Positions 4,945 to 47,516 of a stretch of 47,516 bases of DNA are shown one piece after another. The position numbers and the translations under genes are program-made. The notes under the pieces are model-generated. The model was not told the origin of the DNA. It made no database searches and saw only the letters and a program-made list of their open reading frames with translations. The stretch is from a virus. Location: IMG/VR virus record IMGVR_UViG_3300005607_000005, positions 1 through 47,516 of that record, one strand, 5' to 3'. Position 1 is the stretch's first letter; every line of letters starts with the position of its first letter.

Positions 4945-4956
4945 AACGGTCTCCTT

Positions 4957-5472
4957 TCACTTGGGCGGTGCATCCGGAAGGACGAGACGCCAATCTTTCT
5001 CGTTGAAGACAGGCGGCGGAACGGGGGGGGTAGGTTGGGGCGGCGCCGGCGCAGGAAGGATAAGCGGTGCGGGTGGCTGACCAGGAAAAGAAGCGGGCCG
5101 CGACAGCCAAGAAATCGCGGCGGCTCCCAGTATCGTCCCGATCAGCAGCATCGCGGCGACCAGGCCCAGCGTCATCAGTTGGCCCACCTGGCAGGAGCCA
5201 GCCGACGCCGGCGCGGCCGCCGGTGCTCCGGCGGGAGTCACGGCCGCTGCCGGCGTCTGGGCCGGCCCAGGTGCAGGCACGGCGGCCGCCGCCGGCTGCG
5301 GCGCCGTCAGGATATTGACAGTCGATCCGGGGAACGTGCTCACGTTAGTCTCCGGGTCGAGGCCCAGGCCCTTGGCGGTTGCCTTGCGCAGCAGAGCCTG
5401 CGTTTCGTTCTGATCATGGGCGTGCAGCGTATAGAGCCAGCTGAGCACCTGATCCTTTAATCCCGGACTCAT
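4957..5472 (-). CDS. Hypothetical membrane protein with a Pro/Ala-rich linker and one TM helix
   Basis: ORF-track frame 4957-5586, trimmed to ATG at 5472 (MSPGLKDQVLSW...) because the upstream gene ends at 5523. TM segment LMTLGLVAAMLLIGTILGAAAISWL. Confidence 0.5.
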   Translation of the reverse strand: MSPGLKDQVLSWLYTLHAHDQNETQALLRKATAKGLGLDPETNVSTFPGSTVNILTAPQPAAAAVPAPGPAQTPAAAVTPAGAPAAAPASAGSCQVGQLMTLGLVAAMLLIGTILGAAAISWLSRPASFPGQPPAPLILPAPAPPQPTPPVPPPVFNEKDWRLVLPDAPPK

Positions 5473-16365: not shown

Positions 16366-17754
16366 TTACTTGTAGCTCCGCACTCGGACTTCGCCGCGGG
16401 CGCCAGCGCCGCCGGCACCGCCCGTACTCGTACCGCCGCCGCCGCCGCCACCCCCGCCGCCCGGTGCGGCCCCTGCGCCACCCGCGCCGCCGGTGCCGCC
16501 CGTGTTGCCGCCCCCGCCGCCGCCGCCGGTGCCACAGAGAATCTGTGTGCCTGCCGTGCCGCCCGTGCCGGTGCCGCCGCCGGTGCCACCGCCCGCGCCA
16601 CCGCCCCCCGTACCCGCTCCGCCGGAAGCGCCCGTGCCACCGCCAGCCCCACCGGCTCGTTGGACATTGGAGGCATCAACGCCGCCACCGTTGCCACCAC
16701 CGCCGCCACTCCAGATGGAGACGCCGCCCGCGGTGCCCGTGGCGGACTGAGCCGCCGTCGCACCGCCGCCGCTGGCGCCGCCCCATTCGGCCGGTTGCCC
16801 CGCCGCACCGTTGGGACCTGAGGCGCCAGCGCTGCCGGTGCCGGTAGCTGAGTTACTATTCTGAGGTAGTCCACCGATGTTATTAGCACTGCCTGAGGCG
16901 CCCGCCGACAGGCCGCCGCCACCCCCGCCGCCAGCGGTCGCGGAGACACTGGCAGCTGGCGTGCTGCCCCCATTGCCGCCGCCACCGCCATAGGCATAAA
17001 CCTTCGTGCCGAACGAACTGGTGCCACCACTGGTCCCGGCCGTGCCGGCAGCATTGGTGCCGCCACCGCCGGCGCTGTTGGCCGTACTCGCCACGGTAAC
17101 GGCTTCCGTGGCGCCCAGGTCGGCGGCGTTGAAGAGCATGCGTGTACGGGCCCCACCGCCGCCGCCACCCCCGCCTTGACGGACGTTGGTTGTGGTGGCG
17201 CTCCCGGCGCCGCCGCCTCCTTGGCCGCCGCCGCCGATGACATCGACGAGGACGAGAACGGCCCCTGCGGGCTTCGTCCAGGTTCCGTTGGCGGTGAAGG
17301 TCTGGTCATCGAAGAGCGAGAGACCCGAACTGGACAGTCCTTCGGAGTAAAGCTGGGTGGCCGAAACGCCGTGGAAACAAGCCGTCTTGCCCGCCGGCAG
17401 ACTATAGGCCGCGTTGGTTCCCAGGGCGTCGATCTGGGCGCCGCTAGGAGGGTAGACCGAAAGCGTATTGGCCCCAGCATTGGCCACACAGATGACCTTG
17501 CCGAAGGGGCTGACTGGTGTCGGCAACACAACACCCGTGCTCGCCGCGACCGTCGTGACCTCGTTGAACTCCGCGGTGAGCGCCAGGGCCGTGCCCTGGC
17601 TATTGCCCGTGGCCGTTAGTCCCGTGGACTCGGTCTGATTGGCAATCTGTGCCCGGGTGATCTGGTAGTCCGTACCACCCTGCACGCCGTAAAACGCCGT
17701 GGCGTCGGTCATCGATGGCAAGGCGGCCATATCGACAATGCGTTTATCGGACAT
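16366..17754 (-). CDS. Glycine-rich fibre-associated protein
   Basis: ORF frame 16366-17760; ATG at 17754. The motif FTANGTWTKPAGAVLVLVDVIGGGGQGGGG is followed by long poly-Gly/Ala/Thr tracts. Confidence 0.7.
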   Translation of the reverse strand: MSDKRIVDMAALPSMTDATAFYGVQGGTDYQITRAQIANQTESTGLTATGNSQGTALALTAEFNEVTTVAASTGVVLPTPVSPFGKVICVANAGANTLSVYPPSGAQIDALGTNAAYSLPAGKTACFHGVSATQLYSEGLSSSGLSLFDDQTFTANGTWTKPAGAVLVLVDVIGGGGQGGGGAGSATTTNVRQGGGGGGGGARTRMLFNAADLGATEAVTVASTANSAGGGGTNAAGTAGTSGGTSSFGTKVYAYGGGGGNGGSTPAASVSATAGGGGGGGLSAGASGSANNIGGLPQNSNSATGTGSAGASGPNGAAGQPAEWGGASGGGATAAQSATGTAGGVSIWSGGGGGNGGGVDASNVQRAGGAGGGTGASGGAGTGGGGAGGGTGGGTGTGGTAGTQILCGTGGGGGGGNTGGTGGAGGAGAAPGGGGGGGGGGTSTGGAGGAGARGEVRVRSYK

Positions 17755-18312: not shown

Positions 18313-19539
18313 TTAGTTGTAGGACCAGTAGAAGAACACACGATCAGCGATGTTTTGCACGTCGGTGGGGGTTAGGATACCGGACCAGATGGCGGCCTCG
18401 CACCACGACAGGGAATGAGCCAGGCGATTGGGATCGGCATTGTTATAAGTGCCGCCGATGGCCAGACCGCCCGAGGCATCCAGGCCCAACTGGCTAAAGC
18501 TGGTACCCGAGGTGACCTGGCCGCCGTTGTTGCTGACATTAGCCTGACAGAGGTAATAGTTGGTCAGGCCGCTGTTGGTGCCGTCGTAGGTCACGATGAT
18601 CGCGGCGTCCTGGGGCCCGACAATGCCGCTGTTTTCATTGGAACCGGCTCCGTCCTTGATACCGACGACCGTTGTCGTGGGCCCGCCACCGTCATCCAGG
18701 TTGCCGTTGGTGCCATAGCCGAAGGCCAAGCCGTTGGAACCTGGCGTGCCATCGTCGAAGAAGGCCATGGGCGCCACCGCGGCCCGCACCATCGCGGCAT
18801 AACTCCACTGGCCCGTCCGCGTGAAGAAGTTGAAATTACCCTGGAAAATGCCGCGCCAGTCGCTGCCCGCCTGAATGTCGGGCTTGCCGGTCCCCGTGGC
18901 GTGCAGCTGGAAGTTCGTCACCTGACTGATGGTGTCGGGCGGCACATGCAGGGGCGTCAGGTTGTTGTTGCCAATGAGGTCGCCCCACATCACCACCGGG
19001 TCACCATCGCCTGAGGGCGTCAGGGGCGAGAGATTCTTGTAAGCCCTCGCGTCCGCTGAGACATGCCAGACCATCGTGGCCGAAGTGCCAACGCTGAAAC
19101 CGCCGATGGATTCGCGGATGTGGCGGTTGACGTACAGGTCGCCGGCATAGGGCACCGGCTCGACAGGTAGGACGATCTTGGGCCGAAAGAACCCGACAGA
19201 GCCGAGGGGGCGCTGCGTGCTGATGTGAATGACGCGGCCGGGCCAGGAGGGCATTTCCTCAGCGAAGACCGTCTGCAGCACCGTAGAACGCGGTGCCGGT
19301 ACACTGGCCGTCAGGCCGCGCGGCAGCCGCAGAATCACGTCGCCTTGATAGGGTGGTAGTGGCTCGACCCAGACGAACGAGCCTGGGCGCGGCAAGCCGT
19401 TGACCATGTCCATGCAGACGACATCGAGGAAGTCGATACCGTTGGACAAGAGCAAGCGACTGGCGCCATCGGAGAGCAACAGGCGGCAAATTTGCGCTCC
19501 GGCCGGATCGCCAACAAAAGTGAGGGATCGACGGGTCAA
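18313..19539 (-). CDS. Structural protein with a C-terminal concanavalin-A/LamG-like lectin domain
   Basis: 408-aa ORF (TTG start in the track). The C-terminal ...LAIGGTYNNADPNRLAHSLSWCEAAIWSGILTPTDVQNI resembles the end of LamG-type domains. Confidence 0.5.
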   Translation of the reverse strand: MTRRSLTFVGDPAGAQICRLLLSDGASRLLLSNGIDFLDVVCMDMVNGLPRPGSFVWVEPLPPYQGDVILRLPRGLTASVPAPRSTVLQTVFAEEMPSWPGRVIHISTQRPLGSVGFFRPKIVLPVEPVPYAGDLYVNRHIRESIGGFSVGTSATMVWHVSADARAYKNLSPLTPSGDGDPVVMWGDLIGNNNLTPLHVPPDTISQVTNFQLHATGTGKPDIQAGSDWRGIFQGNFNFFTRTGQWSYAAMVRAAVAPMAFFDDGTPGSNGLAFGYGTNGNLDDGGGPTTTVVGIKDGAGSNENSGIVGPQDAAIIVTYDGTNSGLTNYYLCQANVSNNGGQVTSGTSFSQLGLDASGGLAIGGTYNNADPNRLAHSLSWCEAAIWSGILTPTDVQNIADRVFFYWSYN

Positions 19540-19550
19540 GCCAATCCCCT

Positions 19551-19889
19551 TTAATCACGGACAAGGCGATAAGAAACGTGGCCTGATACCTGCACGGCAC
19601 CGGAGAGGTTCAACGTCAAATCGTTGCCCGGTGTGATGGTATCAAAGTAAGGCGTTGGCTGACCGTTGAAGCCGCAGGCGCTGACGGGCAACACGAGGCC
19701 GGATTGCGCCGCCAGGGGATAGGGGCCGGTGAGTTCGGTTCCACCCGGACCATCGGTCAGCTTGACGTTCACGGTACCCGCGGCGATCAGAGACAGCGAG
19801 AGAACCTGGAAGCGGCAGCCCGGGATGCCGGCCACTAGCTGCGTGTTTCCTGAGATGGCCGTGTCGATGGCGACAAATTGCGTCTTCAT
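19551..19889 (-). CDS. Hypothetical small beta-rich structural protein
   Basis: 112-aa ORF in the structural gene train. Confidence 0.5.
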   Translation of the reverse strand: MKTQFVAIDTAISGNTQLVAGIPGCRFQVLSLSLIAAGTVNVKLTDGPGGTELTGPYPLAAQSGLVLPVSACGFNGQPTPYFDTITPGNDLTLNLSGAVQVSGHVSYRLVRD

Positions 19890-35808: not shown

Positions 35809-36026
35809 GTCGGTTGCTCCTCCATGACGGTAGCCTTGATACGCTTGCCACAAAGGCCGCACTTGCCGAGGGAGGAGGTCTCGTCGGGCGGGTAGAGGTA
35901 CAGGGGCGAGCTACCGTCGAGCAGAGCGGCGTAATTTTCGGCCCAAACACGACCCAGATCCTGGGACAGCTTGAGCTGCTGCGTGTGGCCGTTTTGGCAA
36001 ATGATGTCAATGACGTACATCATCAT
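35805..36026 (-). CDS. Hypothetical small protein
   Basis: ATG triplet run at 36020-36026 overlapping the Gp37/Gp68 stop (ATGA): MMMYVIDIICQNGHTQQL...CGLCGKRI. Confidence 0.45.
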   Translation of the reverse strand: MMMYVIDIICQNGHTQQLKLSQDLGRVWAENYAALLDGSSPLYLYPPDETSSLGKCGLCGKRIKATVMEEQPT

Positions 36027-36973
36027 TTCTCCTTGGGAAACTCTCGTATTTGCAGATCCTGCGGCCATTCCGCTGGATTACCGCCCTTGGGGTCGCGGAG
36101 GCGGTAGGTGGCGCCGAGGGCCTTGGCGATGAAATCGTGACTGAGTCCTTTGGAGTCGGTGAAGCCGGTGATGTTGGCCCCGAGCTGCTTTACGAAACAG
36201 GCCACGCCGGCGGCTTTGCACTGCTCGACCAGCGACCGCACCCAGGTCAGATCGCAGGGCCTAGCATCAGGTCCGCTCTCGCCGCCAATAATGCACCAAT
36301 CGAGGTGGCAAGCACACTCCCCATGATCCGCTTCGTGGTCCCTACCACGGTAGCCATCGTGGTAGCATCCTCCCCATCGGGAGATGTCCAGCTCTACAGG
36401 GGCAATCAAGGGCTCGCAACTGAGGAACCGCACCGCCGCCGGCGTCTGGAGCAGTAGTGGAATCCTCTCGTCTGCCCGGGCCTGGTCCTCGACGGAGACG
36501 CCGAGCCAGACGTTGGGAGCGGGCTGGAACTCCGCACCGCCGAATCGCCCCCAGCGCTTCGAGCAATATGCGTGTAGGCGGTCGGCCCGCTTGGTCAGCA
36601 CCTGGAACTGGTGCTGCGGGCTTTTCCACATCGCCCGGAACACGTCATCAATGTCGTCGTCCGAAACCCAAGCGCCGAAGAGGTCCGTCATCGAACAGAC
36701 GAACACCCGGCGCGGCTTCTTCCAGTGCAAGGGCTGTTTCAGCACCTGTTTGTCCAGGAACAGCTCCAGGTCTTGCCGCCGCCCTTCCCGACCGACCGGG
36801 CCGCCGTAGGAGGGCAGCCCGAAGCGCCGCTGCAACGCCGAGGCGTAACAGTGGGCGCAGCCAGGGGAAACCATCTCGCAGTAGTGGCCTACCTTGCCGG
36901 TCTGGCGGTGGCGCGCCCGGAGCGGGTTCCACGTCTCATCCGTCCATTCGATCTTCGTAGCGGCCATGGTCAC
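36023..36973 (-). CDS. Phage Gp37/Gp68 family protein (DUF5131)
   Basis: 316-aa ORF. TKIEWTDETWNPLRA...VSPGCAHCYA is the family-defining N-terminus. Confidence 0.8.
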   Translation of the reverse strand: MTMAATKIEWTDETWNPLRARHRQTGKVGHYCEMVSPGCAHCYASALQRRFGLPSYGGPVGREGRRQDLELFLDKQVLKQPLHWKKPRRVFVCSMTDLFGAWVSDDDIDDVFRAMWKSPQHQFQVLTKRADRLHAYCSKRWGRFGGAEFQPAPNVWLGVSVEDQARADERIPLLLQTPAAVRFLSCEPLIAPVELDISRWGGCYHDGYRGRDHEADHGECACHLDWCIIGGESGPDARPCDLTWVRSLVEQCKAAGVACFVKQLGANITGFTDSKGLSHDFIAKALGATYRLRDPKGGNPAEWPQDLQIREFPKEK

Positions 36974-37491
36974 TCCACCCCGAGGCGGTCAAAAAGCTCG
37001 TTCATCGTCGTGCAGATATTCCTGGGAGGACCGAGCAACAACGCCATCAGTTCGGGTTCAACATGATCAAAGGCAACCGTGAAGACTGGTTTACCGAAGC
37101 CGGCCAGGTAACCAGCCTCTAGATGCGCCGATCGGCCACAAGGCAATACGAGCACGCCACAATCAGCGCGGCCGAGGGCGGCCTTGTCATGATGGAACCC
37201 GCGCTTGGCAATGGGGTGAGAGAGGGCTTGTTGCCAATCCCGCGGCGTCCAGCCCAGCCATTGCGGGTCGATTTTCGACCAGCGAAAACCGTCGTTGCCC
37301 GGGACCGGCGCGCGGAAGTCGTAAACCTGCAAGCCGACCGAGCGCAGGGCCGCGACGATGCCTTGCTGCAAGGGATTGCGCCAGCTGGAGGCGACATAAA
37401 CGTAAGACGGTTTGGCCTTCGGACCATCTCCATCAAGCCAGCGCTGGAAGGCAGATCGATCGTCAACAATATCGAGAGGTTGAAGATTCAT
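36970..37491 (-). CDS. Nucleoside 2-deoxyribosyltransferase-like protein
   Basis: 173-aa ORF. VYVASSWRN near the N-terminus and VLPCGRSAHLEAGYLAGFGKPV fit the Rossmann-like deoxyribosyltransferase pattern. Assignment by eye only. Confidence 0.45.
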   Translation of the reverse strand: MNLQPLDIVDDRSAFQRWLDGDGPKAKPSYVYVASSWRNPLQQGIVAALRSVGLQVYDFRAPVPGNDGFRWSKIDPQWLGWTPRDWQQALSHPIAKRGFHHDKAALGRADCGVLVLPCGRSAHLEAGYLAGFGKPVFTVAFDHVEPELMALLLGPPRNICTTMNELFDRLGVE

Positions 37492-37551
37492 TCTGAGGAC
37501 TCCTTGTTCGTGTTCGCGTTTCTCGGGAGGGAATTGGCCATCATCGTCTCC

Positions 37552-38427
37552 CTATTCACACAACCCATATTTGCTCACGCAGGTGTGAGCCTCCGCTTCG
37601 ATGAACGGCAGGCTGTATTGCTGGCCACCCCGCTCCGTCTTCGACCAGGCCACGACTTCATCAATCCAATTGATGTCCTTGCCCGGCACCATCGGCGCAA
37701 AAAATGTGCGGCCGACCGACTGCTCCCAGCGTCGCACCTTGTCGATCATCTCGGGGAAACGGGCCACCCAATTGCGGATGTCGGCCTTACTGGAGTTGAT
37801 GCACGGCGCGCAGCCGACCCGGTTAAAACCCAACTTGTAGAGAGGATTGATTTCCTCGCCGGCGGCCAGGACGTAATCGAAACATTGCTGCTTGGTCCAA
37901 CGGAAGAGGGGCCGATAGAGCATGCAGTGGAAGTAGCGATCGAATTCCTGCTCCGGACAGCTGGCGCGATTTCGGGACTCGTCGGCACGGACGCCGATGT
38001 AGCGAGCATAGCGAATCCCCTTGGCGGTCAGATGCTCATCTAGCCAGCGCTTTTGCGGCGCCAGCTTCAGGTACTCCGTGCAGAATTGGGCCTTTCGTGA
38101 AGGGAATCTTCCCTTCACGAAAGCGAGTTTGTCGAAGGTCAGCGGCTCCTCTTCGCCCAACGTGAGCCGTCGCTCGCGCGTGGCGCCTTCGTGTGTGCCC
38201 ACGTTGCCCAGATCCTTGACCAGGGCGCGGACGGTGATCACGGGAAAGACGTGAGCGGAGTACCAGCGGACGAAGCCCTCAGTCAGCGGATGCTCGTTAC
38301 CGCCCGCGTCGCTGTTGAGGAGAAGGATGTCCTCCGGCGGGAAGGTTTGGCGTGCCCACAGCGCGACGGCCTGACTGTCGATGCCGCCGGAAAAGCCCAC
38401 GACGATTTTCTTGTCAAGCATTTCCAT
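37552..38427 (-). CDS. Phosphoadenosine phosphosulfate (PAPS) reductase family / PP-loop ATPase
   Basis: 291-aa ORF. PP-loop KIVVGFSGGIDS, then IGVRADESRNRA and YRPLFRWTKQQCFDYV, all typical of the PAPS_reduct family. Confidence 0.8.
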   Translation of the reverse strand: MEMLDKKIVVGFSGGIDSQAVALWARQTFPPEDILLLNSDAGGNEHPLTEGFVRWYSAHVFPVITVRALVKDLGNVGTHEGATRERRLTLGEEEPLTFDKLAFVKGRFPSRKAQFCTEYLKLAPQKRWLDEHLTAKGIRYARYIGVRADESRNRASCPEQEFDRYFHCMLYRPLFRWTKQQCFDYVLAAGEEINPLYKLGFNRVGCAPCINSSKADIRNWVARFPEMIDKVRRWEQSVGRTFFAPMVPGKDINWIDEVVAWSKTERGGQQYSLPFIEAEAHTCVSKYGLCE

Positions 38428-38686: not shown

Positions 38687-39321
38687 CGCAGCAACCTCCG
38701 ATCTGGCCCGGTCAGCTCCAGCACGGTGCCGGCTGCCAGGCGACTCGTTAGCCGGTCGTCATAAAGGCCCGCTAGCACGTCGAGACTCAAATTCGACCCA
38801 ACGACCAGGGGACGGCCCGATCGTTCGTCTACGACGCGATAAACGCATTCGTAGGCATGATCGCTGACTCGTTGGCGTGCGCCGAGTTCATCCAGGACGA
38901 CCAAGGTCGTGCGGGCGATTTCCTCCCAGAGGGACGCAGCGGATACGCGGAGTTTGCTATCTGGGTTGTAGAGTTCACCCTTGTAGGCCAGGAGGATTTT
39001 GCCGGCCAGGCCGGCGGCGGTGAAGTACAGGCCGCCGGCGTGGTCGAGCAGGCACAGGGCCGCACACGTCTTGCCCGTGCCCGGCTTGCCAATGAGGACC
39101 AACGGCCAGGGCAAGCTGCCATCCACGCAATCACGAATTACCCGGCCGAGGTGGTTCTCCACTAGCGCCACTTCCCGGGGCTTGTCCTTCAGCCAGTGGC
39201 GTTGGGCCTGGGATCTGAGTGTCAGGACCTTCCGGCCCGATGCGGATGGCGACGTTGGCATACTTGCCAGGCGGCGCTTCGACTCTGCCAGGACGAGGTC
39301 CCAGATCTTGGCTCCGTCCAT
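38683..39321 (-). CDS. DnaC/IstB-like AAA+ helicase loader
   Basis: 212-aa ORF. Walker A LIGKPGTGKT, Walker B LVVLDELG. Follows the replication initiator. Confidence 0.75.
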   Translation of the reverse strand: MDGAKIWDLVLAESKRRLASMPTSPSASGRKVLTLRSQAQRHWLKDKPREVALVENHLGRVIRDCVDGSLPWPLVLIGKPGTGKTCAALCLLDHAGGLYFTAAGLAGKILLAYKGELYNPDSKLRVSAASLWEEIARTTLVVLDELGARQRVSDHAYECVYRVVDERSGRPLVVGSNLSLDVLAGLYDDRLTSRLAAGTVLELTGPDRRLLR

Positions 39322-40156
39322 GCACGGCCTCCATCAAATCGTCTTCCCAGCGCTGGCCTCGCAGCCAGGTGGCTGGATTGGGAATGAAACGTCCCCCCTC
39401 CCGTGTCCATTGGTCGCTATGACGCTGCTTCTCCACAGCCGCCAGGATGCGCTCGAGTAGCTCCGCATTCGGGTTGAGTTTGAGCCAGGCATCGGCGGCA
39501 GCCCGCTTGGCGACCTTCCTGGGGTAAGCATCCCAAAAGCGGAGAAAGCCTGCGTCTTCGGTTGGTCGTTGTTTGCGTCGGGAACCTACGGAGGGTGTAT
39601 TTGTATTCTCTTCTTTCCTTTCCTTTCCTTTAGAGCGGATTTCAGCGTGACAGGGCTGTGACATGTCACGCTCACTGTCACAGGGCTTGTCACGCTGTTG
39701 TCCCATGCCTTTCTGTCGCTGGCGCTGTTTACGGATTGCATCGCGCCGCCTCCGCAGGTCTTCATTGGGGACGTTGTTGCGAAAGAACTTAGGGAAAACG
39801 ACTCTGCCATCGTCAGTCTCCTTCGCCCAGCCGACTTTCTCCATCGCCTCGCCAAAGCACGGCACTTCGGCCAGCACGTCGAGGCTGCCGAGGCCGGCGC
39901 AGTCGAGCACGAGGTCATATCCGGAGGCGTATCCCTGCTCGCGCGCCACGCCCCAGACTTGCAGCAGTCCCGCAATTGTCACGCTGAGTGTCACGCTCGT
40001 GTCCACATGCTCATAGGCGGTCTTCGAACAGGTGCGTTGTACGGGATCGGTGAGCCAATTCATAAAGCTACGGCAGCCCGCGAGATAGTCAGCCAGTGCA
40101 ATGACGCGCGGGTCGCGGCGCAGCCAGACGCGCATAGGTATCCAGTCACCAGCCAT
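39131..40156 (-). CDS. Replication initiation-type protein
   Basis: ORF frame 39131-40255, trimmed to ATG at 40156 because upstream codons run into CRISPR repeat 1. FLRFWDAYPRKVAKRAAADAWLKL...GRFIPNPATWLRGQRWEDD is a pattern seen in prophage replication proteins. The 3' 191 nt overlap the DnaC-like gene. Confidence 0.6.
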   Translation of the reverse strand: MAGDWIPMRVWLRRDPRVIALADYLAGCRSFMNWLTDPVQRTCSKTAYEHVDTSVTLSVTIAGLLQVWGVAREQGYASGYDLVLDCAGLGSLDVLAEVPCFGEAMEKVGWAKETDDGRVVFPKFFRNNVPNEDLRRRRDAIRKQRQRQKGMGQQRDKPCDSERDMSQPCHAEIRSKGKERKEENTNTPSVGSRRKQRPTEDAGFLRFWDAYPRKVAKRAAADAWLKLNPNAELLERILAAVEKQRHSDQWTREGGRFIPNPATWLRGQRWEDDLMEAVHGRSQDLGPRPGRVEAPPGKYANVAIRIGPEGPDTQIPGPTPLAEGQAPGSGASGEPPRPGNS

Positions 40157-40194
40157 CCGTGGCCTCCCTGGCTTTGCTGGGCTTTTTCTCCGCA

Positions 40195-40754
40195 GCCGCA
40201 TCACCCTGTTGGTCCCAACCAGTGATCCTGGATCAGGCCATACCTGATGGCTCAAGGAGACACACGATGCCGCATCACCCTGTTGGTCCCAACCAGTGAT
40301 CCTGGGCTCGGGGGTTATCCGAGCACGGCGGCGTTAGCTGAGGCCGCATCACCCTGTTGGTCCCAACCAGTGATCCTGGACAACTGGCGCGAGCCAAGCA
40401 GGGCCGCCGCCATAAGGCCGCATCACCCTGTTGGTCCCAACCAGTGATCCTGGTCCCACGAAGGCGGATGAGCAGACAAAAGTTCAAGTGGCCGCATCAC
40501 CCTGTTGGTCCCAACCAGTGATCCTGGTCTCCATAAGGGCGATCGCTGGCGGCTCCTTGGTCCTGCCGCATCACCCTGTTGGTCCCAACCAGTGATCCTG
40601 GTACGGAAGCCCTGTTGCGTGAGGAGCGCGATTCCAGACGCCGCATCACCCTGTTGGTCCCAACCAGTGATCCTGGGCGGGTCCGCCCCAGTCTTCGTGC
40701 GGGCCGGAATGCACCTTGCCGCATCACCCTGTTGGTCCCAACCAGTGATCCTGG
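40195..40754. CRISPR. CRISPR array: 8 identical 37-nt repeats (gccgcatcaccctgttggtcccaaccagtgatcctgg) and 7 spacers
   Basis: Repeats at 40195-40231, 40269-40305, 40343-40379, 40417-40453, 40491-40527, 40565-40601, 40640-40676 and 40718-40754. Spacer lengths are 37, 37, 37, 37, 37, 38 and 41 nt, all different. The repeat holds an imperfect palindrome (ATCAC..CTG.TTG / CAA.CAG..GTGAT). Confidence 0.95.
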
Positions 40755-40965
40755 GGCCGTGGCCATAAGGCCCAATATCCCAGGCATTTCCAGCGGCCTC
40801 CGCGAGCGGTGCCTGGCGGCAAGCGCCAGGGCCGTGATTCGCGCTTAGCGTGGCGGTCGCTAATGTTTGTCGCCATTGCCTTTATTCCTTGCGAGCGGCC
40901 TCTATTGTCCCGATGGGGCGCAAAAACTGAAGTCGAACACCTTTGGCGCGTTGGGATAGTCTGAA
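40755..40965 (-). other. 211-nt non-coding spacer between the TnpB/Cas12-like gene and the array; candidate leader or tracrRNA/scaffold region
   Basis: No credible ORF. Less GC-rich than its surroundings by eye. Contains cacctttggcgcgttggga (40938-40956), which is related to the repeat core caccctgttggtcccaacc. Confidence 0.3.
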
Positions 40966-42018
40966 TCAATTGTGAGCATTCGGGTCCTCGTCTCCTCCAC
41001 CAAAAGTAATCCCCAGTCCCTGGAGCTTATAAGCCAACAGCCGCCGCAGTTCGGACCAGGGAAACAGGGGTAGCCAACTCTTGTCGTGATCGGTGTAGAT
41101 CACCCTGGCCACTTTTTGTCGCTCCGCCAGGCCGACCAGCTGGGCGGTCAGCTGGTGCAGTGAGGTATGGATACGGCGTTGGTGCTTCTGACAGCGCTCC
41201 TGCCGCTTCTCTCGAATGTGCCGCAGTTTGCCCGGAGGTAGACGCAACTCATACTTACTGTCCTCAGCGATACGCTGCAGGTAGGCGCGATGGCTGATGC
41301 AGAGGCGCCGTAGGTCATCGTGGTTCCAGTAGCGCGGCTCCTGCCCCTCGATCTCGACGACCCATAGGCAGGTCGAAGAGGTGAGCACTCTCATAAGCCT
41401 GGTACGCTCCGACAAGAGGGGCGGTGGAAAGCGACCCACCAGGCCAACCAGCAGGGCGTTACCCCGTCGGTAGATTTTGGCTTCACTCTTGAGGGCGGCA
41501 CCTTCCACGAATTGGCGGAAGAGTGCCACCTGGCGGGCGAAGTTCGGGCCGCCCTTGAGTCGGAGCTGCCAGCGCTTCTCGGCACCGCGTCCCAGTGGCA
41601 GGCTCACCAGGGGCCGGTTGCCCTGATCCCAAGAAGGGCGCCAAGCCTGGTTATGGACCGGATAGGGCGTCGGATAGCGATACGTCGGCAGGCTGGCCGC
41701 ATGTTGCCAGAGGACTTGATAAAGGACTGCTTTGTACTTGCGCTTCACCGCGCGTTCCAGCGAGGCACAGGTGCGCGTGTCGAGATCGGGGAAGAGTTGG
41801 GTCAGCTTTGGGTAAAAGTACGTCGCCGGCATGGGTGGTAGTTTGGCATCACCGGGCAGCCGCTGGTGATCAGCCTTGGCCAACTCGGTCATCAGCCAGT
41901 TGCTGGCTGCCGTAGTCTGGGCCCAGCAAGCATGCAAATCGCGCCAAAGTGCTTCCCAGGAACCCTCCACGGGGGAAGCGACAGAGAGAGTTGTGCAGCG
42001 AACTATCGAGTCACTCAT
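40966..42018 (-). CDS. Compact TnpB/Cas12-like protein, apparently RuvC-inactive and C-terminally truncated; candidate CRISPR-associated RNA-guided DNA-binding protein
   Basis: 350-aa ORF. Its ATG overlaps the recT stop (ATGA at 42015-42018). Helix KRQERCQKHQRRIHTSLHQLTAQLVGLAERQKV, then VARVIYTDHD, then FPWSELRRLLAYKLQGLGITF, parallels the TnpB layout (helix, IVIEDL strand, L.YK...G). The Glu position holds Thr, the GIDLG-equivalent strand reads RVLTSS, and the protein ends before any CxxC zinc finger or RuvC-III segment. Confidence 0.5.
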   Translation of the reverse strand: MSDSIVRCTTLSVASPVEGSWEALWRDLHACWAQTTAASNWLMTELAKADHQRLPGDAKLPPMPATYFYPKLTQLFPDLDTRTCASLERAVKRKYKAVLYQVLWQHAASLPTYRYPTPYPVHNQAWRPSWDQGNRPLVSLPLGRGAEKRWQLRLKGGPNFARQVALFRQFVEGAALKSEAKIYRRGNALLVGLVGRFPPPLLSERTRLMRVLTSSTCLWVVEIEGQEPRYWNHDDLRRLCISHRAYLQRIAEDSKYELRLPPGKLRHIREKRQERCQKHQRRIHTSLHQLTAQLVGLAERQKVARVIYTDHDKSWLPLFPWSELRRLLAYKLQGLGITFGGGDEDPNAHN

Positions 42019-47329: not shown

Positions 47330-47419
47330 AAGATAATCTGGTGGACATCCACTGTCAATACAAGAAAATCTTTTTTTCTTATTCTAAACTCTTGCAGACA
47401 TACATTAGGCGCTTATACT
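47330..47419. promoter_or_regulatory. AT-rich divergent promoter/operator region
   Basis: Minus strand: TTGACA (47353-47358), 17-nt spacer, TATCTT (47330-47335), upstream of the early operon. Plus strand: TTGCAG (47392-47397), 16-nt spacer, TATACT (47414-47419, equal to 8-13), upstream of the RHH gene. Between them is the inverted repeat aagaaaa(47362-47368)/ttttctt(47374-47380). Sigma70-type consensus is assumed. Confidence 0.4.
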
Positions 47420-47516
47420 TTTTTGATTCATGACTTCCAACTGACATTGCATTGAAGGTGGCATTACGATGTTGCTCATGGCTAAATCTGGACGTAAAGC
47501 AGACCGGCACAAAAAG
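47407..47516. repeat. Second copy of the terminal direct repeat (equal to 1-110)
   Basis: Identical to 1-110. Includes the start of the RHH gene (ATG at 47469). Confidence 0.95.

Follow-up and report, generated by a model that had tools for sequence, protein, structure and literature searches.

The stretch of DNA analysed here (hereafter the window; 47,516 nt) is a circularly closed genome in which bases 1-110 are identical to bases 47407-47516, a terminal identity that supports the closure claimed in a preliminary description of the sequence. It encodes a tyrosine integrase and belongs to a temperate phage, probably of an Acidobacteriota host; a tRNA scan of the window found no tRNAs. One segment of its minus strand holds a CRISPR array together with the following neighbours:

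40966-42018, minus strand: gene for a 350-aa dCas12f-like protein, as judged by PADLOC, a family profile and an AF2 model with Foldseek
40755-40950 (5' limit approximate), minus strand: predicted tracrRNA-like scaffold RNA, from a covariance model and comparative covariation
40195-40754, minus strand: CRISPR array of eight 37-nt repeats (minus-strand reading CCAGGAUCACUGGUUGGGACCAACAGGGUGAUGCGGC) and seven spacers
40163-40194, minus strand: junction past the last repeat, 29 nt, with GGGAGG and the ATG (40163-40165) of the next gene
39131-40165, minus strand: replication initiator gene, downstream of the array (PHROG replication initiation protein, 8.8e-39)

The upstream neighbours of the 350-aa gene are RecT and YqaJ, and its ATG overlaps the stop codon of RecT. 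Since the junction downstream of the array carries GGGAGG and the start codon of the next gene, the cassette is embedded in an early recombination and replication operon. A scan for sigma-70-like promoters, which is uninformative for Acidobacteriota, returned none on the minus strand inside the cassette.

The repeat, GCCGCATCACCCTGTTGGTCCCAACCAGTGATCCTGG, is present in eight exact copies starting at positions 40195, 40269, 40343, 40417, 40491, 40565, 40640 and 40718, and the seven spacers (37, 37, 37, 37, 37, 38 and 41 nt) are all unique. This is precisely the array that had been described before, down to the absence of mismatches, and the recovered spacers agree with the earlier list. Eight perfect 37-mers at a regular spacing of 74-78 nt exclude a chance origin, and the locus has the general properties of a CRISPR array, namely at least three nearly identical direct repeats (23-55 nt) with unique spacers of comparable length between them. 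With up to 10 substitutions allowed, the rest of the window contains no additional copy of the repeat, and both the exact repeat and its core are absent from IMG/VR and the JGI metagenome collection, where the source contig itself is also absent. PADLOC and Pfam identified no Cas1, Cas2 or Cas4 among the 66 ORFs of the window, which bears out the view of the locus as a genuine array on a phage genome without adaptation genes.

The preliminary description had gone further and stated that no recognisable cas gene occurs anywhere in the genome. This has to be revised, as profile and structure methods show the adjoining 350-aa ORF to be Cas12f-like. Standard annotation by Pfam, NCBIfam, PHROGs and single-sequence searches of the PDB left this ORF without a match, and its Cas12f identity becomes visible only by PADLOC, by a family profile and by predicted structure. 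PADLOC gave a weak Cas12f match (1.6e-5), with the labels Cas12f and Cas12u3 and without Cas12m. When compared with the PDB, the family profile (A1) matched OsCas12f at 1.2e-10 and a ‘nuclease-deactivated Cas12f’ (9n9c) at 8e-9 in a full-length alignment. The AF2 model of the protein (pLDDT 88) has Cas12f structures as its best Foldseek matches, AsCas12f and OsCas12f included (4.7e-17, TM about 0.6), followed by dCas12f 9n9m at 6e-15; matches to TnpB are weaker (1e-9), and that to Cas12m2 (8e-7, TM 0.43) is far weaker than those to Cas12f. By profile and Foldseek, the protein possesses the WED-REC-RuvC fold of Cas12f.

The catalytic motifs of this fold have been lost. The position of the RuvC-I Asp is occupied by Leu (by R, K, H, A or T in the relatives checked), that of the RuvC-II Glu by Thr309, and the C-terminus lies ~10 residues past the post-RuvC-II motif, so that the protein has neither the intact RuvC D-E-D triad nor the zinc finger/TNB of an active enzyme; this C-terminal truncation is common to the whole protein family. 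With the Asp of RuvC-I and the Glu of RuvC-II replaced and both zinc finger and RuvC-III missing, the protein is, as judged from its sequence, a natural nuclease-dead Cas12f. A rearranged or trans-complemented nuclease may also be conceivable, because many relatives carry Asp at the RuvC-II position and the family retains invariant acidic residues (D50, D234 and D253, with D310 nearly invariant).

The interval between gene and array encodes a predicted scaffold RNA of roughly 190 nt, which an Rfam scan of the window did not match. Its elements, all read on the minus strand, are:

40887-40900, minus strand: CCGCTCGC motif
40845-40863, minus strand: hairpin A, with the loop CCGC at 40853-40856
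40811-40833, minus strand: hairpin B, with the loop GCUUGCC
40800-40810, minus strand: CCGCUCGCGG
40779-40784, minus strand: anti-repeat CCUGGG, within GGGAUAU
40760-40774, minus strand: hairpin D
40755-40759, minus strand: CGGCC, abutting the first repeat
40745-40874, minus strand: core of the covariance model (model R1)

The first repeat in the minus-strand reading (40718-40754) is contiguous with the scaffold, with no gap between them. Model R1 scores 104.8 bits in the window, where it occurs once, and, in 11 loci outside its training set, 49-100 bits; it finds the scaffold beside nearly every homologue of the gene, independent MAG loci included, and the element is kept downstream of the Cas12f-like gene in all loci examined. 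Across the aligned loci, 92.7% of cells at the proposed pairs are paired, compared with 63% after shuffling and 34-50% when the partners are slid, and 17 of the 18 pairs are compensatory; adding the pseudoknot gives 91.4% as against 63.8%. The predicted structure is drawn only from this comparative covariation, the energy of the single-sequence fold of the window scaffold being unremarkable (z = 0.15, not significant).

The scaffold is also linked to the array by complementarity. The 5' end of the repeat, CCAGG, with the C that precedes it, is complementary to the scaffold segment CCUGGG, and the GCGG at its 3' end is complementary to the CCGC loop of hairpin A. Although both trans duplexes are short (4-6 bp each), both covary across more than 20 loci, with pairs such as CCGC:GCGG, CUGC:GCAG, CUGU:ACAG, CCAG:CUGG, CCAU:AUGG and UCGC:GCGA. 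The nearest relative (L038) has the same pairing pattern with a G-U compensating change, and the internal hairpin of the repeat covaries between loci as well. Repeats vary from phage to phage in step with their scaffold, and the pairing of a tracrRNA anti-repeat with the repeat that typifies Cas12f systems is predicted here too. Since the repeat ends covary with two segments of the scaffold, the array can be assigned, on sequence grounds, to a compact cassette of Cas12f-like gene, scaffold RNA and array rather than to a host system. The suggestion in the preliminary description that the 350-aa gene might matter has thus proved well founded: the ORF is a truncated, apparently RuvC-dead Cas12f homologue beside a repeat-pairing scaffold.

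The protein belongs to an unannotated family of at least 742 clusters at 50% identity, found with arrays in Acidobacteriota phages and with single guides in chromosomes. The order and the shared strand of gene, scaffold and array in the window are also seen in related loci (L001-3, L005, L009, L011, L014-16, L021-23, L028, L030, L032 and L033). Across 15 arrays of the family, the repeats measure 36-37 nt and the spacers 34-38 nt, and 69 different spacers were counted. Hairpins occur in 7 of these 69 spacers, against 4.7% expected (p = 0.04), a weak enrichment on which we do not rely. In a sister phage recovered as population variants from four samples, the 2.5-kb flanks are 99.96-100% identical and the spacers entirely different, implying array turnover in the absence of adaptation genes on the phage; among the best 25 of 45 families at the related viral loci (109 neighbouring ORFs), none is cas1, cas2 or cas4. 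The position of the cassette differs among phages, and in others it lies between the terminase and portal genes. The chromosomal single-guide relatives adjoin kdp, TonB-receptor and ECF-sigma genes, L035 being the only one with an adjacent ECF sigma.

The preliminary description had proposed comparing the spacers with the phage's own genome and with external databases, and tabulating flanking motifs for a PAM. A search of both strands of the rest of the window that allowed up to 10 substitutions gave no match for any spacer, and the wider search, which took in GenBank phages and plasmids, IMG/VR, the JGI metagenome collection and the related loci, yielded no protospacer. A BLAST of the whole array against GenBank phages and plasmids gave a sole match, to Variovorax, at an E-value of 0.5; spacers 1, 4 and 7 are absent from IMG/VR and spacer 2 from the JGI metagenome collection, and the first spacers of two relatives matched their own arrays only. 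An 18-nt seed of spacer 6 led to two matches at 23-24 of 37 positions, which we take as chance, as we do the matches of 12-17 nt between family spacers and the window (including L023 spacer 2, 17 nt, at 19752-19768). In one relative, a spacer matches a palindrome immediately upstream of its terminase gene.

Taken as a whole, the locus is best read as a three-part phage cassette whose effector binds target DNA without cutting it and acts by occupancy or silencing, a reading to which we give a probability of about 70%. The array would serve as the guide store for a Cas12f derivative whose RuvC nuclease has been lost. Gene, scaffold and array would be transcribed together on the minus strand as part of the early operon and, once the RNA had been processed, two short duplexes would join each repeat-spacer unit to the scaffold: one between the 5' end of the repeat and the anti-repeat beside GGGAUAU, the other between its 3' end and the loop of hairpin A, forming a pseudoknot that adjoins the guide, much as in the guide RNAs of Cas12f and TnpB. 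The resulting ribonucleoprotein would bind complementary DNA without cleaving it, most likely blocking transcription or some other DNA transaction of competing phages, plasmids or host genes. There is precedent for such activity, as dCas12f with its guide RNA binds DNA (PMC13472631) and inactivated type V effectors of types V-C and V-M silence through binding (PMC12669027, PMC11656645). New spacers would have to be installed by machinery absent from the phage. The idea of a self-contained system therefore stands as regards effector and guide, and falls as regards adaptation, for which the phage carries no genes.

It is this dependence that lends some colour to a quite different account, in which an orphan mini-array supplies crRNAs with host-type repeats to a hijacked host Cas system and the 350-aa gene is irrelevant. 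Phage mini-arrays of such a kind are known (PMC11656645), this phage has no adaptation genes, and the spacer turnover in the sister phage implies some Cas1-Cas2 acting in trans. The presence of a Cas12f-like effector and a repeat-pairing scaffold nevertheless makes hijacking very unlikely: the gene always lies directly upstream of scaffold and array, the repeat ends covary with a phage-encoded RNA and change between phages together with it, and the repeat core is in neither IMG/VR nor the JGI metagenome collection. Sequestration of host V-F crRNAs by the dead protein and its scaffold, or titration of host Cas by the repeats, would turn the cassette into an anti-CRISPR decoy, a role proposed for a RuvC-inactivated phage Cas9 with its tracrRNA and one with parallels in RNA anti-CRISPRs built from repeats (PMC11656645, PMC12669027). 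A decoy, however, has no need of seven unique, length-conserved spacers or of their turnover within a population, and the chromosomal single-guide relatives beside cellular operons point to real targeting, so that we hold this role, too, to be highly improbable.

Somewhat less remote, though still unlikely, is the possibility that the dead Cas12f recruits a partner to guided sites, be it a sigma factor with RNA polymerase or a phage recombination, replication or packaging protein. This is how dCas12f 9n9c/9n9m operates, the nearest dead relative with a solved structure (PMC13472631); the location of the gene between RecT/YqaJ and the replication initiator, or between terminase and portal elsewhere, would suit such a role, as would the ECF sigma factor next to the chromosomal relative L035. 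Against this, the 66 ORFs of the window include no sigma-70 domain at E <= 1e-4, neighbours vary by phage with no conserved protein partner across 18 viral loci, and diverse, fast-changing spacers look more like defence or competition than fixed regulation. Guided mobility, in which the dead effector would steer integration or homing of the element as in CasMu-V or CAST systems, is scarcely credible. CasMu-V does combine a type V effector without RuvC-III with a Mu transposase and a homing spacer (PMC10910872), and the cassette does sit at differing positions among phage genomes; yet the integrase of the window is a tyrosine integrase, its ORFs include no MuA, MuB, Tn7 or rve-type transposase, no transposase (Mu included) occurs among the best 25 of 45 families from the 109 neighbouring ORFs of related viral loci, and no spacer matches the ends or any other part of the phage's own genome.

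If the binding-without-cleavage reading is correct, a 350-aa protein with a natural multi-guide array would rank among the smallest natural programmable DNA binders and could be developed into compact CRISPRi or epigenome tools. Having lost RuvC-III, kept its array and fused the tracrRNA to the first repeat, the cassette would also represent an evolutionary intermediate predicted in the literature, within a family that includes single-guide chromosomal derivatives. The turnover of arrays without phage adaptation genes turns the way in which mobile elements get spacers into a testable question and, as single-sequence searches miss the family, a similar misreading may affect many phage arrays regarded as ‘orphan’. 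A bolder scenario, which we regard as speculative and on balance doubtful, is that temperate phages of soil Acidobacteriota carry a dead-Cas12f cassette (350-400 aa) as a heritable, adaptive ‘CRISPRi’ weapon, gaining spacers without phage Cas1-Cas2 (through host integrases or capture at the scaffold-repeat junction) and silencing or blocking rivals at regulatory or packaging sites, with repeated chromosomal domestication as a single-guide regulator. Were this so, the family would still display, among its living members, the steps that lead from CRISPR immunity to RNA-guided gene regulation.

Several known systems resemble parts of this cassette. CasMu-V is set apart by its linked MuA/MuB transposase genes and transposon ends, as the window has no transposase domain. 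TldR (PMC10705468) is likewise an RNA-guided DNA binder of miniature size, truncated and RuvC-dead, whose gene overlaps at its 3' end with the guide RNA, and is resembled by the family's chromosomal single-guide relatives; it derives directly from TnpB, however, and lacks an array, whereas the window protein is nearer to Cas12f than to TnpB by Foldseek. Cas12m (V-M), V-C, V-O and V-P are mobile-element effectors that interfere by binding (PMC11656645, PMC12669027), which is the model proposed here, but these are larger proteins from other Cas12 branches (Foldseek 1e-6 to 1e-5), and Cas12m, which uses crRNA alone and is mainly plasmid-borne, is a type to which the window protein does not belong.

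Type V-F (Cas12f/Cas14) provides the best structural matches, repeats of 36-37 nt and a two-segment tracrRNA-repeat pairing with one duplex beside the guide. Unlike type V-F, the window protein lacks the RuvC triad, zinc finger and RuvC-III, its repeat has a hairpin of its own, its tracr-like RNA runs on into the first repeat without a gap, and the cas1, cas2 and cas4 adaptation module that is a feature of V-F1 is missing. The dCas12f-sigmaE system (9n9c/9n9m; PMC13472631, PMC12259091) has a similar design: its protein, too, is a truncated, RuvC-dead Cas12f homologue (~350-365 aa) with a C-terminus shortly past RuvC-II, and in its guide RNA the scaffold precedes the guide (5' to 3'). It differs in host phylum, in its operonic rpoE (an ECF sigma with a C-terminal extension not found in the window ORFs) and in its use of a single chimeric gRNA in place of an eight-repeat array, single-guide forms being confined to some chromosomal relatives in our family; structure-aligned sequence identity is about 14-15%.

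A close parallel by description is the CRISPR-array-associated dCas12f cluster of Hoffmann et al., Nature 2026 (Extended Data Fig. 1a,b; PMC13472631), in which a dead, C-terminally truncated Cas12f homologue lies by an array with a covarying structured guide RNA in the intergenic space upstream of it. That uncharacterised cluster, a proposed repressor, was described briefly from bacterial genomes and MAGs, one example being from Chitinophagaceae and aimed at an efflux promoter (PMC13472631). The cassette in the window, by contrast, is carried by temperate phages of Acidobacteriota, has its scaffold fused to the first repeat and shows rapid array turnover.

The CRISPR array comprises eight identical copies of a 37-nt repeat, GCCGCATCACCCTGTTGGTCCCAACCAGTGATCCTGG, and seven unique spacers, exactly as listed in a preliminary description made from the sequence alone. 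No additional copy of the repeat was found elsewhere in the window with up to 10 substitutions allowed and, in the self-match search that the description had proposed, no spacer matched the remainder of the window on either strand at the same tolerance. The description had also held that this closed genome carries neither adaptation genes nor any recognisable cas gene. Closure was borne out by the identity of bases 1-110 with 47407-47516, exact direct repeats of 110 nt at the two ends that leave a circular unit of 47,406 bp, and PADLOC and Pfam searches of the 66 ORFs in the window detected no Cas1, Cas2 or Cas4. The wider claim had to be withdrawn, since a 350-aa ORF lying 211 nt before the array in transcriptional order was identified as Cas12f-like by PADLOC, by a family profile and by Foldseek.

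Features of the cassette in the window
40966-42018, minus strand: 350-aa ORF, Cas12f-like gene
40745-40874, minus strand: 130-nt core of the scaffold, a tracrRNA-like RNA
40195-40754: CRISPR array, with repeats starting at 40195, 40269, 40343, 40417, 40491, 40565, 40640 and 40718, and spacers of 37, 37, 37, 37, 37, 38 and 41 nt

The Cas12f match to this ORF, although weak (1.6e-5), was the sole CRISPR-related match in the PADLOC and Pfam searches. The gene had looked hypothetical because Pfam, NCBIfam, PHROGs and a single-sequence PDB search all returned no match to its product. (In the source contig, JGI 3300039481 Ga0400696_000185 of 47,610 nt, it is called as a 308-aa hypothetical protein with a later start.) A database search recovered 21 metagenomic homologues, all unannotated, and a profile of these homologues matched OsCas12f in the PDB at 1.2e-10, together with the full length of the 365-aa 'nuclease-deactivated Cas12f' 9n9c (8e-9). 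An AlphaFold2 model generated from the family alignment was confident (mean pLDDT 88), and in Foldseek it scored best against Cas12f (4.7e-17; As, Os, Sp, Cn and Un1 enzymes) and dCas12f (6e-15), ahead of TnpB (1e-9) and other Cas12 subtypes (1e-7 to 1e-5). Profile, model and structural search thus agree on a Cas12f fold. Most family members possess an N-terminal CxxC...CxxC zinc ribbon, which neither the window protein nor its three nearest relatives have.

A profile-to-structure alignment was used to locate the catalytic positions. The RuvC-I motif GVDMG of OsCas12f aligns with 'tltVRTsp' in the family; the position of the catalytic Asp holds Leu in the window protein and, among those relatives that were checked, R, K, H, A or T. 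In RuvC-II, 'mED' aligns with 'YDD', and the Glu position is variable (D/N/T; Thr309 in the window protein). This is followed by an FPW..L...YK..GI motif, and since every member terminates a few dozen residues past it at most, the zinc finger/TNB region and RuvC-III are absent. A profile search of 1.84 billion cluster representatives returned 1447 relatives (742 at E <= 1e-30), of which the best 150 are almost all ~390-450 aa long with matches reaching near the C terminus, making the truncation a family trait. The same truncation across the family rules out an assembly artefact. As judged from these motifs, the RuvC nuclease is predicted to be dead.

Among related loci from metagenome contigs, IMG/VR and MAGs (designated by L numbers), many have a CRISPR array downstream of the gene on the same strand, with a gene-to-first-repeat gap of ~150-210 nt in several. 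The interval is conserved in sequence and contains GCGAGC...GCTCGC, two hairpins (one of 5 bp whose loop is ACCGNCA, the other with GCTTGCC as its loop), CCGCTCGCG, and GGGATAT with a variable hairpin and CRGCC after it, directly abutting the first repeat. The RNAalifold structure shows compensatory changes in 25 of 27 pairs. A covariance model of the 130-nt core found exactly one copy in the window (104.8 bits), as well as gene-adjacent copies in L018, L019 and L027-L035, loci not used in building it (49-100 bits; E-values are rough, the calibration having been shortened). Across 44 covariance-model matches, 92.7% of cells were paired, against 63% in column shuffles and 34-50% with slid partners, and double changes were seen in 17 of 18 pairs; this alignment (A5) was fitted to the model, and a plain MAFFT alignment (A2) gave the same result. 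At some loci there are several copies of the scaffold, arranged in tandem or separated by 8 kb (L017:1072-1727, equivalent to L034:11096-11751; L034:8362-8438; L010:11448-11576 and 19001-19131), an arrangement similar to the omegaRNA-like arrays reported from other lineages of dead Cas12f/TnpB.

The repeat is predicted to dock on this RNA through two helices. In helix 1, the six bases directly 5' of AUAU (CCUGGG in the window) pair with C+CCAGG, the last scaffold base plus the first five repeat bases; the helix is kept in 99% of cells and has four covarying positions. Helix 2, discovered by an all-against-all column scan, is pseudoknotted, and joins the loop of scaffold hairpin A to four bases near the repeat 3' end, beside the spacer. 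It is paired in 92.6% of cells and covaries clearly across loci: CCGC:GCGG in the window, CUGC:GCAG in L023, CUGU:ACAG in L001, CCAG:CUGG in L009, CCAU:AUGG in L032, UCGC:GCGA in L028, CCGUA:UACGG in L017 and CCGG:CCGG in L029. The repeat's own hairpin, which lies between the two docking segments, covaries between loci too, and in the nearest relative (L038; 68% protein identity), where the repeat differs slightly, anti-repeat pairing is kept via a G-U change. By its covariation, the pairing appears to follow the logic of a tracrRNA:crRNA pair. Cas12f guide RNAs contain two repeat:anti-repeat duplexes; the two-helix docking predicted here is alike, except that scaffold and first repeat are covalently continuous, which would make this transcript a natural single-guide RNA carrying spacer 1. 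The repeat-spacer units that come after it would need to dock on the scaffold in trans. Two relatives have irregular arrays (L010:11060-11440, TGGAAGCTGCGGG; L019:11210-11900, TCGTTCGGG / ATCGGTCGGG), in which only a short repeat-3'-end motif recurs, at uneven 10-40 nt spacing; this motif is the repeat portion that pairs with the hairpin-A loop.

The carrier has genes for both terminase subunits (small and large), portal, capsid, a Mu-F-like head protein, a tyrosine integrase, RecT/YqaJ and a replication initiator, a set that marks it as a temperate tailed phage; nearly all genes of the window lie on the minus strand. The initiator ATG, preceded by a GGGAGG ribosome-binding site, lies only 29 nt beyond the last repeat (40163-40194). 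Processing of pre-crRNA would therefore also cleave the transcript of the replication genes, and could thereby couple the two. Just downstream of the replication genes is a three-gene group (36023-38427: DUF5131 (Gp37/Gp68-like), a nucleoside 2-deoxyribosyltransferase-like ORF and a DndC/SspD/BrxP-like PAPS-reductase gene). One window ORF gave strong PADLOC matches (~1e-60) to PDC-M41B and PDC-M30B, and another feature, GC-rich tandem repeats of periods 3, 12 and 30 at 16433-16605, falls inside a long minus-strand ORF that is probably a collagen-like tail fibre; a collagen triple-helix Pfam match was obtained in one window ORF.

At other viral loci the genes encode lambda-type gpA terminases, portals, capsids, integrases, methylases and YqaJ/RecT/ERF, with no Cas1/2 and no recurrent partner gene among the neighbour families listed. 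In the window the cassette is flanked by RecT and the replication initiator, in L021 by terminase and portal; given these differing genomic modules, the conserved unit is gene, scaffold and array. The titles of the MAGs indicate Acidobacteriota (Paludibaculum, Bryobacteraceae and Acidobacteriaceae among them), the host assignments being those of MAG binning, which placed one locus in Saccharibacteria and one in an actinomycete. Chromosomal (MAG) relatives lack an array, and their scaffold leads into just one repeat and one guide (L007:2847-3050; L027:11048-11260; L029:3604-3800; L031:2792-2990; L035:6081-6300; L018:4450-4625). These loci adjoin a TonB-dependent receptor/OMP barrel, kdpA-kdpB, a KdpD-like histidine kinase, Ser/Thr kinases, or an ECF sigma factor together with a MarR gene; the dCas12f gene of L035 seems to carry a frameshift. 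In L012:11068-11816 and L025:4013-4678 an extra ORF, which looks ParB-N-like by eye (Pfam gave no match for that of L025), separates gene from scaffold, and the downstream arrays have a different repeat, 30-nt spacers and a period of 66.

All 69 spacers in 15 arrays are distinct (34-38 nt). In one sister phage, represented by four contigs from four samples, 2.5 kb including gene and scaffold are 99.96-100% identical, and the four arrays have no spacer in common, the first one included. Spacers are therefore replaced much more rapidly than the DNA around them changes, in phages that carry no genes for adaptation proteins.

Searches for targets, which the preliminary description had suggested making against viral and plasmid databases, identified no protospacer for the window spacers searched. 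The whole array had no significant match in GenBank phages and plasmids, the cores of spacers 1, 4 and 7 were absent from IMG/VR and that of spacer 2 from the JGI metagenome collection, and an 18-nt seed of spacer 6 gave chance matches only; the first spacers of two relatives matched their own arrays only. The one significant protospacer-like match in the family searches involves spacer 5 of L021 (~4947-4985), which matches a 22-bp perfect palindrome, AACTGTCATCCGATGACAGTT (L021:421-444), 47 nt upstream of the same phage's terminase gpA gene (26/29 when counted from the first base of the spacer, or an exact 22 in the opposite orientation). From this single case, regulatory or packaging sites of related phages, such as a cos site, operator or promoter, are possible targets. 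Hairpin tendency within spacers was weak (p = 0.04; 69 spacers, 15 arrays). In the window, spacer 5 read in gene sense begins with 16 nt, CTTATGGCGGCGGCCC, that resemble the 3' half of hairpin D in the scaffold together with CGGCCC (CTTATGGCCACGGCCC; 40401-40428 versus 40754-40781, 79% identity over 28 nt); the similarity may reflect chance, a scar left by recombination or capture of the spacer from a relative's scaffold.

Taken together, the observed array, fold, missing catalytic motifs, conserved covarying RNA, repeat-scaffold complementarity, genomic linkage and spacer turnover best support the reading of a type V-F derivative with a dead nuclease that acts by DNA occupancy. An early-operon transcript would be processed into scaffold and crRNAs, with which the 350-aa protein would assemble; the complex would then bind complementary DNA without cutting, silencing transcription, or blocking some other DNA transaction, in competing mobile elements or in genes of the host. 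Precedents support this: dCas12f binds DNA with guide RNA (PMC13472631), inactivated V-C and V-M effectors interfere through binding (PMC12669027, PMC11656645), and TldRs, truncated dead TnpBs, repress (PMC10705468). An array that hijacks host Cas proteins, a complex that recruits or activates a partner, an anti-CRISPR decoy and guided mobility each fit less well, as the covariation between repeat and scaffold and the linkage of both to the gene are better accommodated by occupancy.

With respect to known systems, the cassette falls outside the definition of canonical V-F, because its nuclease is dead and it has no adaptation module; of CasMu-V, another type V system that has lost RuvC-III (PMC10910872), because it has no transposase; and of dCas12f-sigmaE, because it lacks rpoE and carries a complete array. 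A cluster of dead Cas12f proteins adjoining CRISPR arrays, where a covarying RNA precedes the array, is mentioned but not characterised by Hoffmann et al. (PMC13472631), and by that published description the window cassette would work alike. Our literature search found no description of a phage-borne CRISPR-linked dCas12f, nor of the fused scaffold-repeat architecture, double docking or spacer turnover of such a system. The cassette matches a stage on the path proposed from Cas12f to single-guide dead derivatives, through successive RuvC-III loss, array minimisation and fusion of the tracrRNA to a half repeat (PMC10691335).
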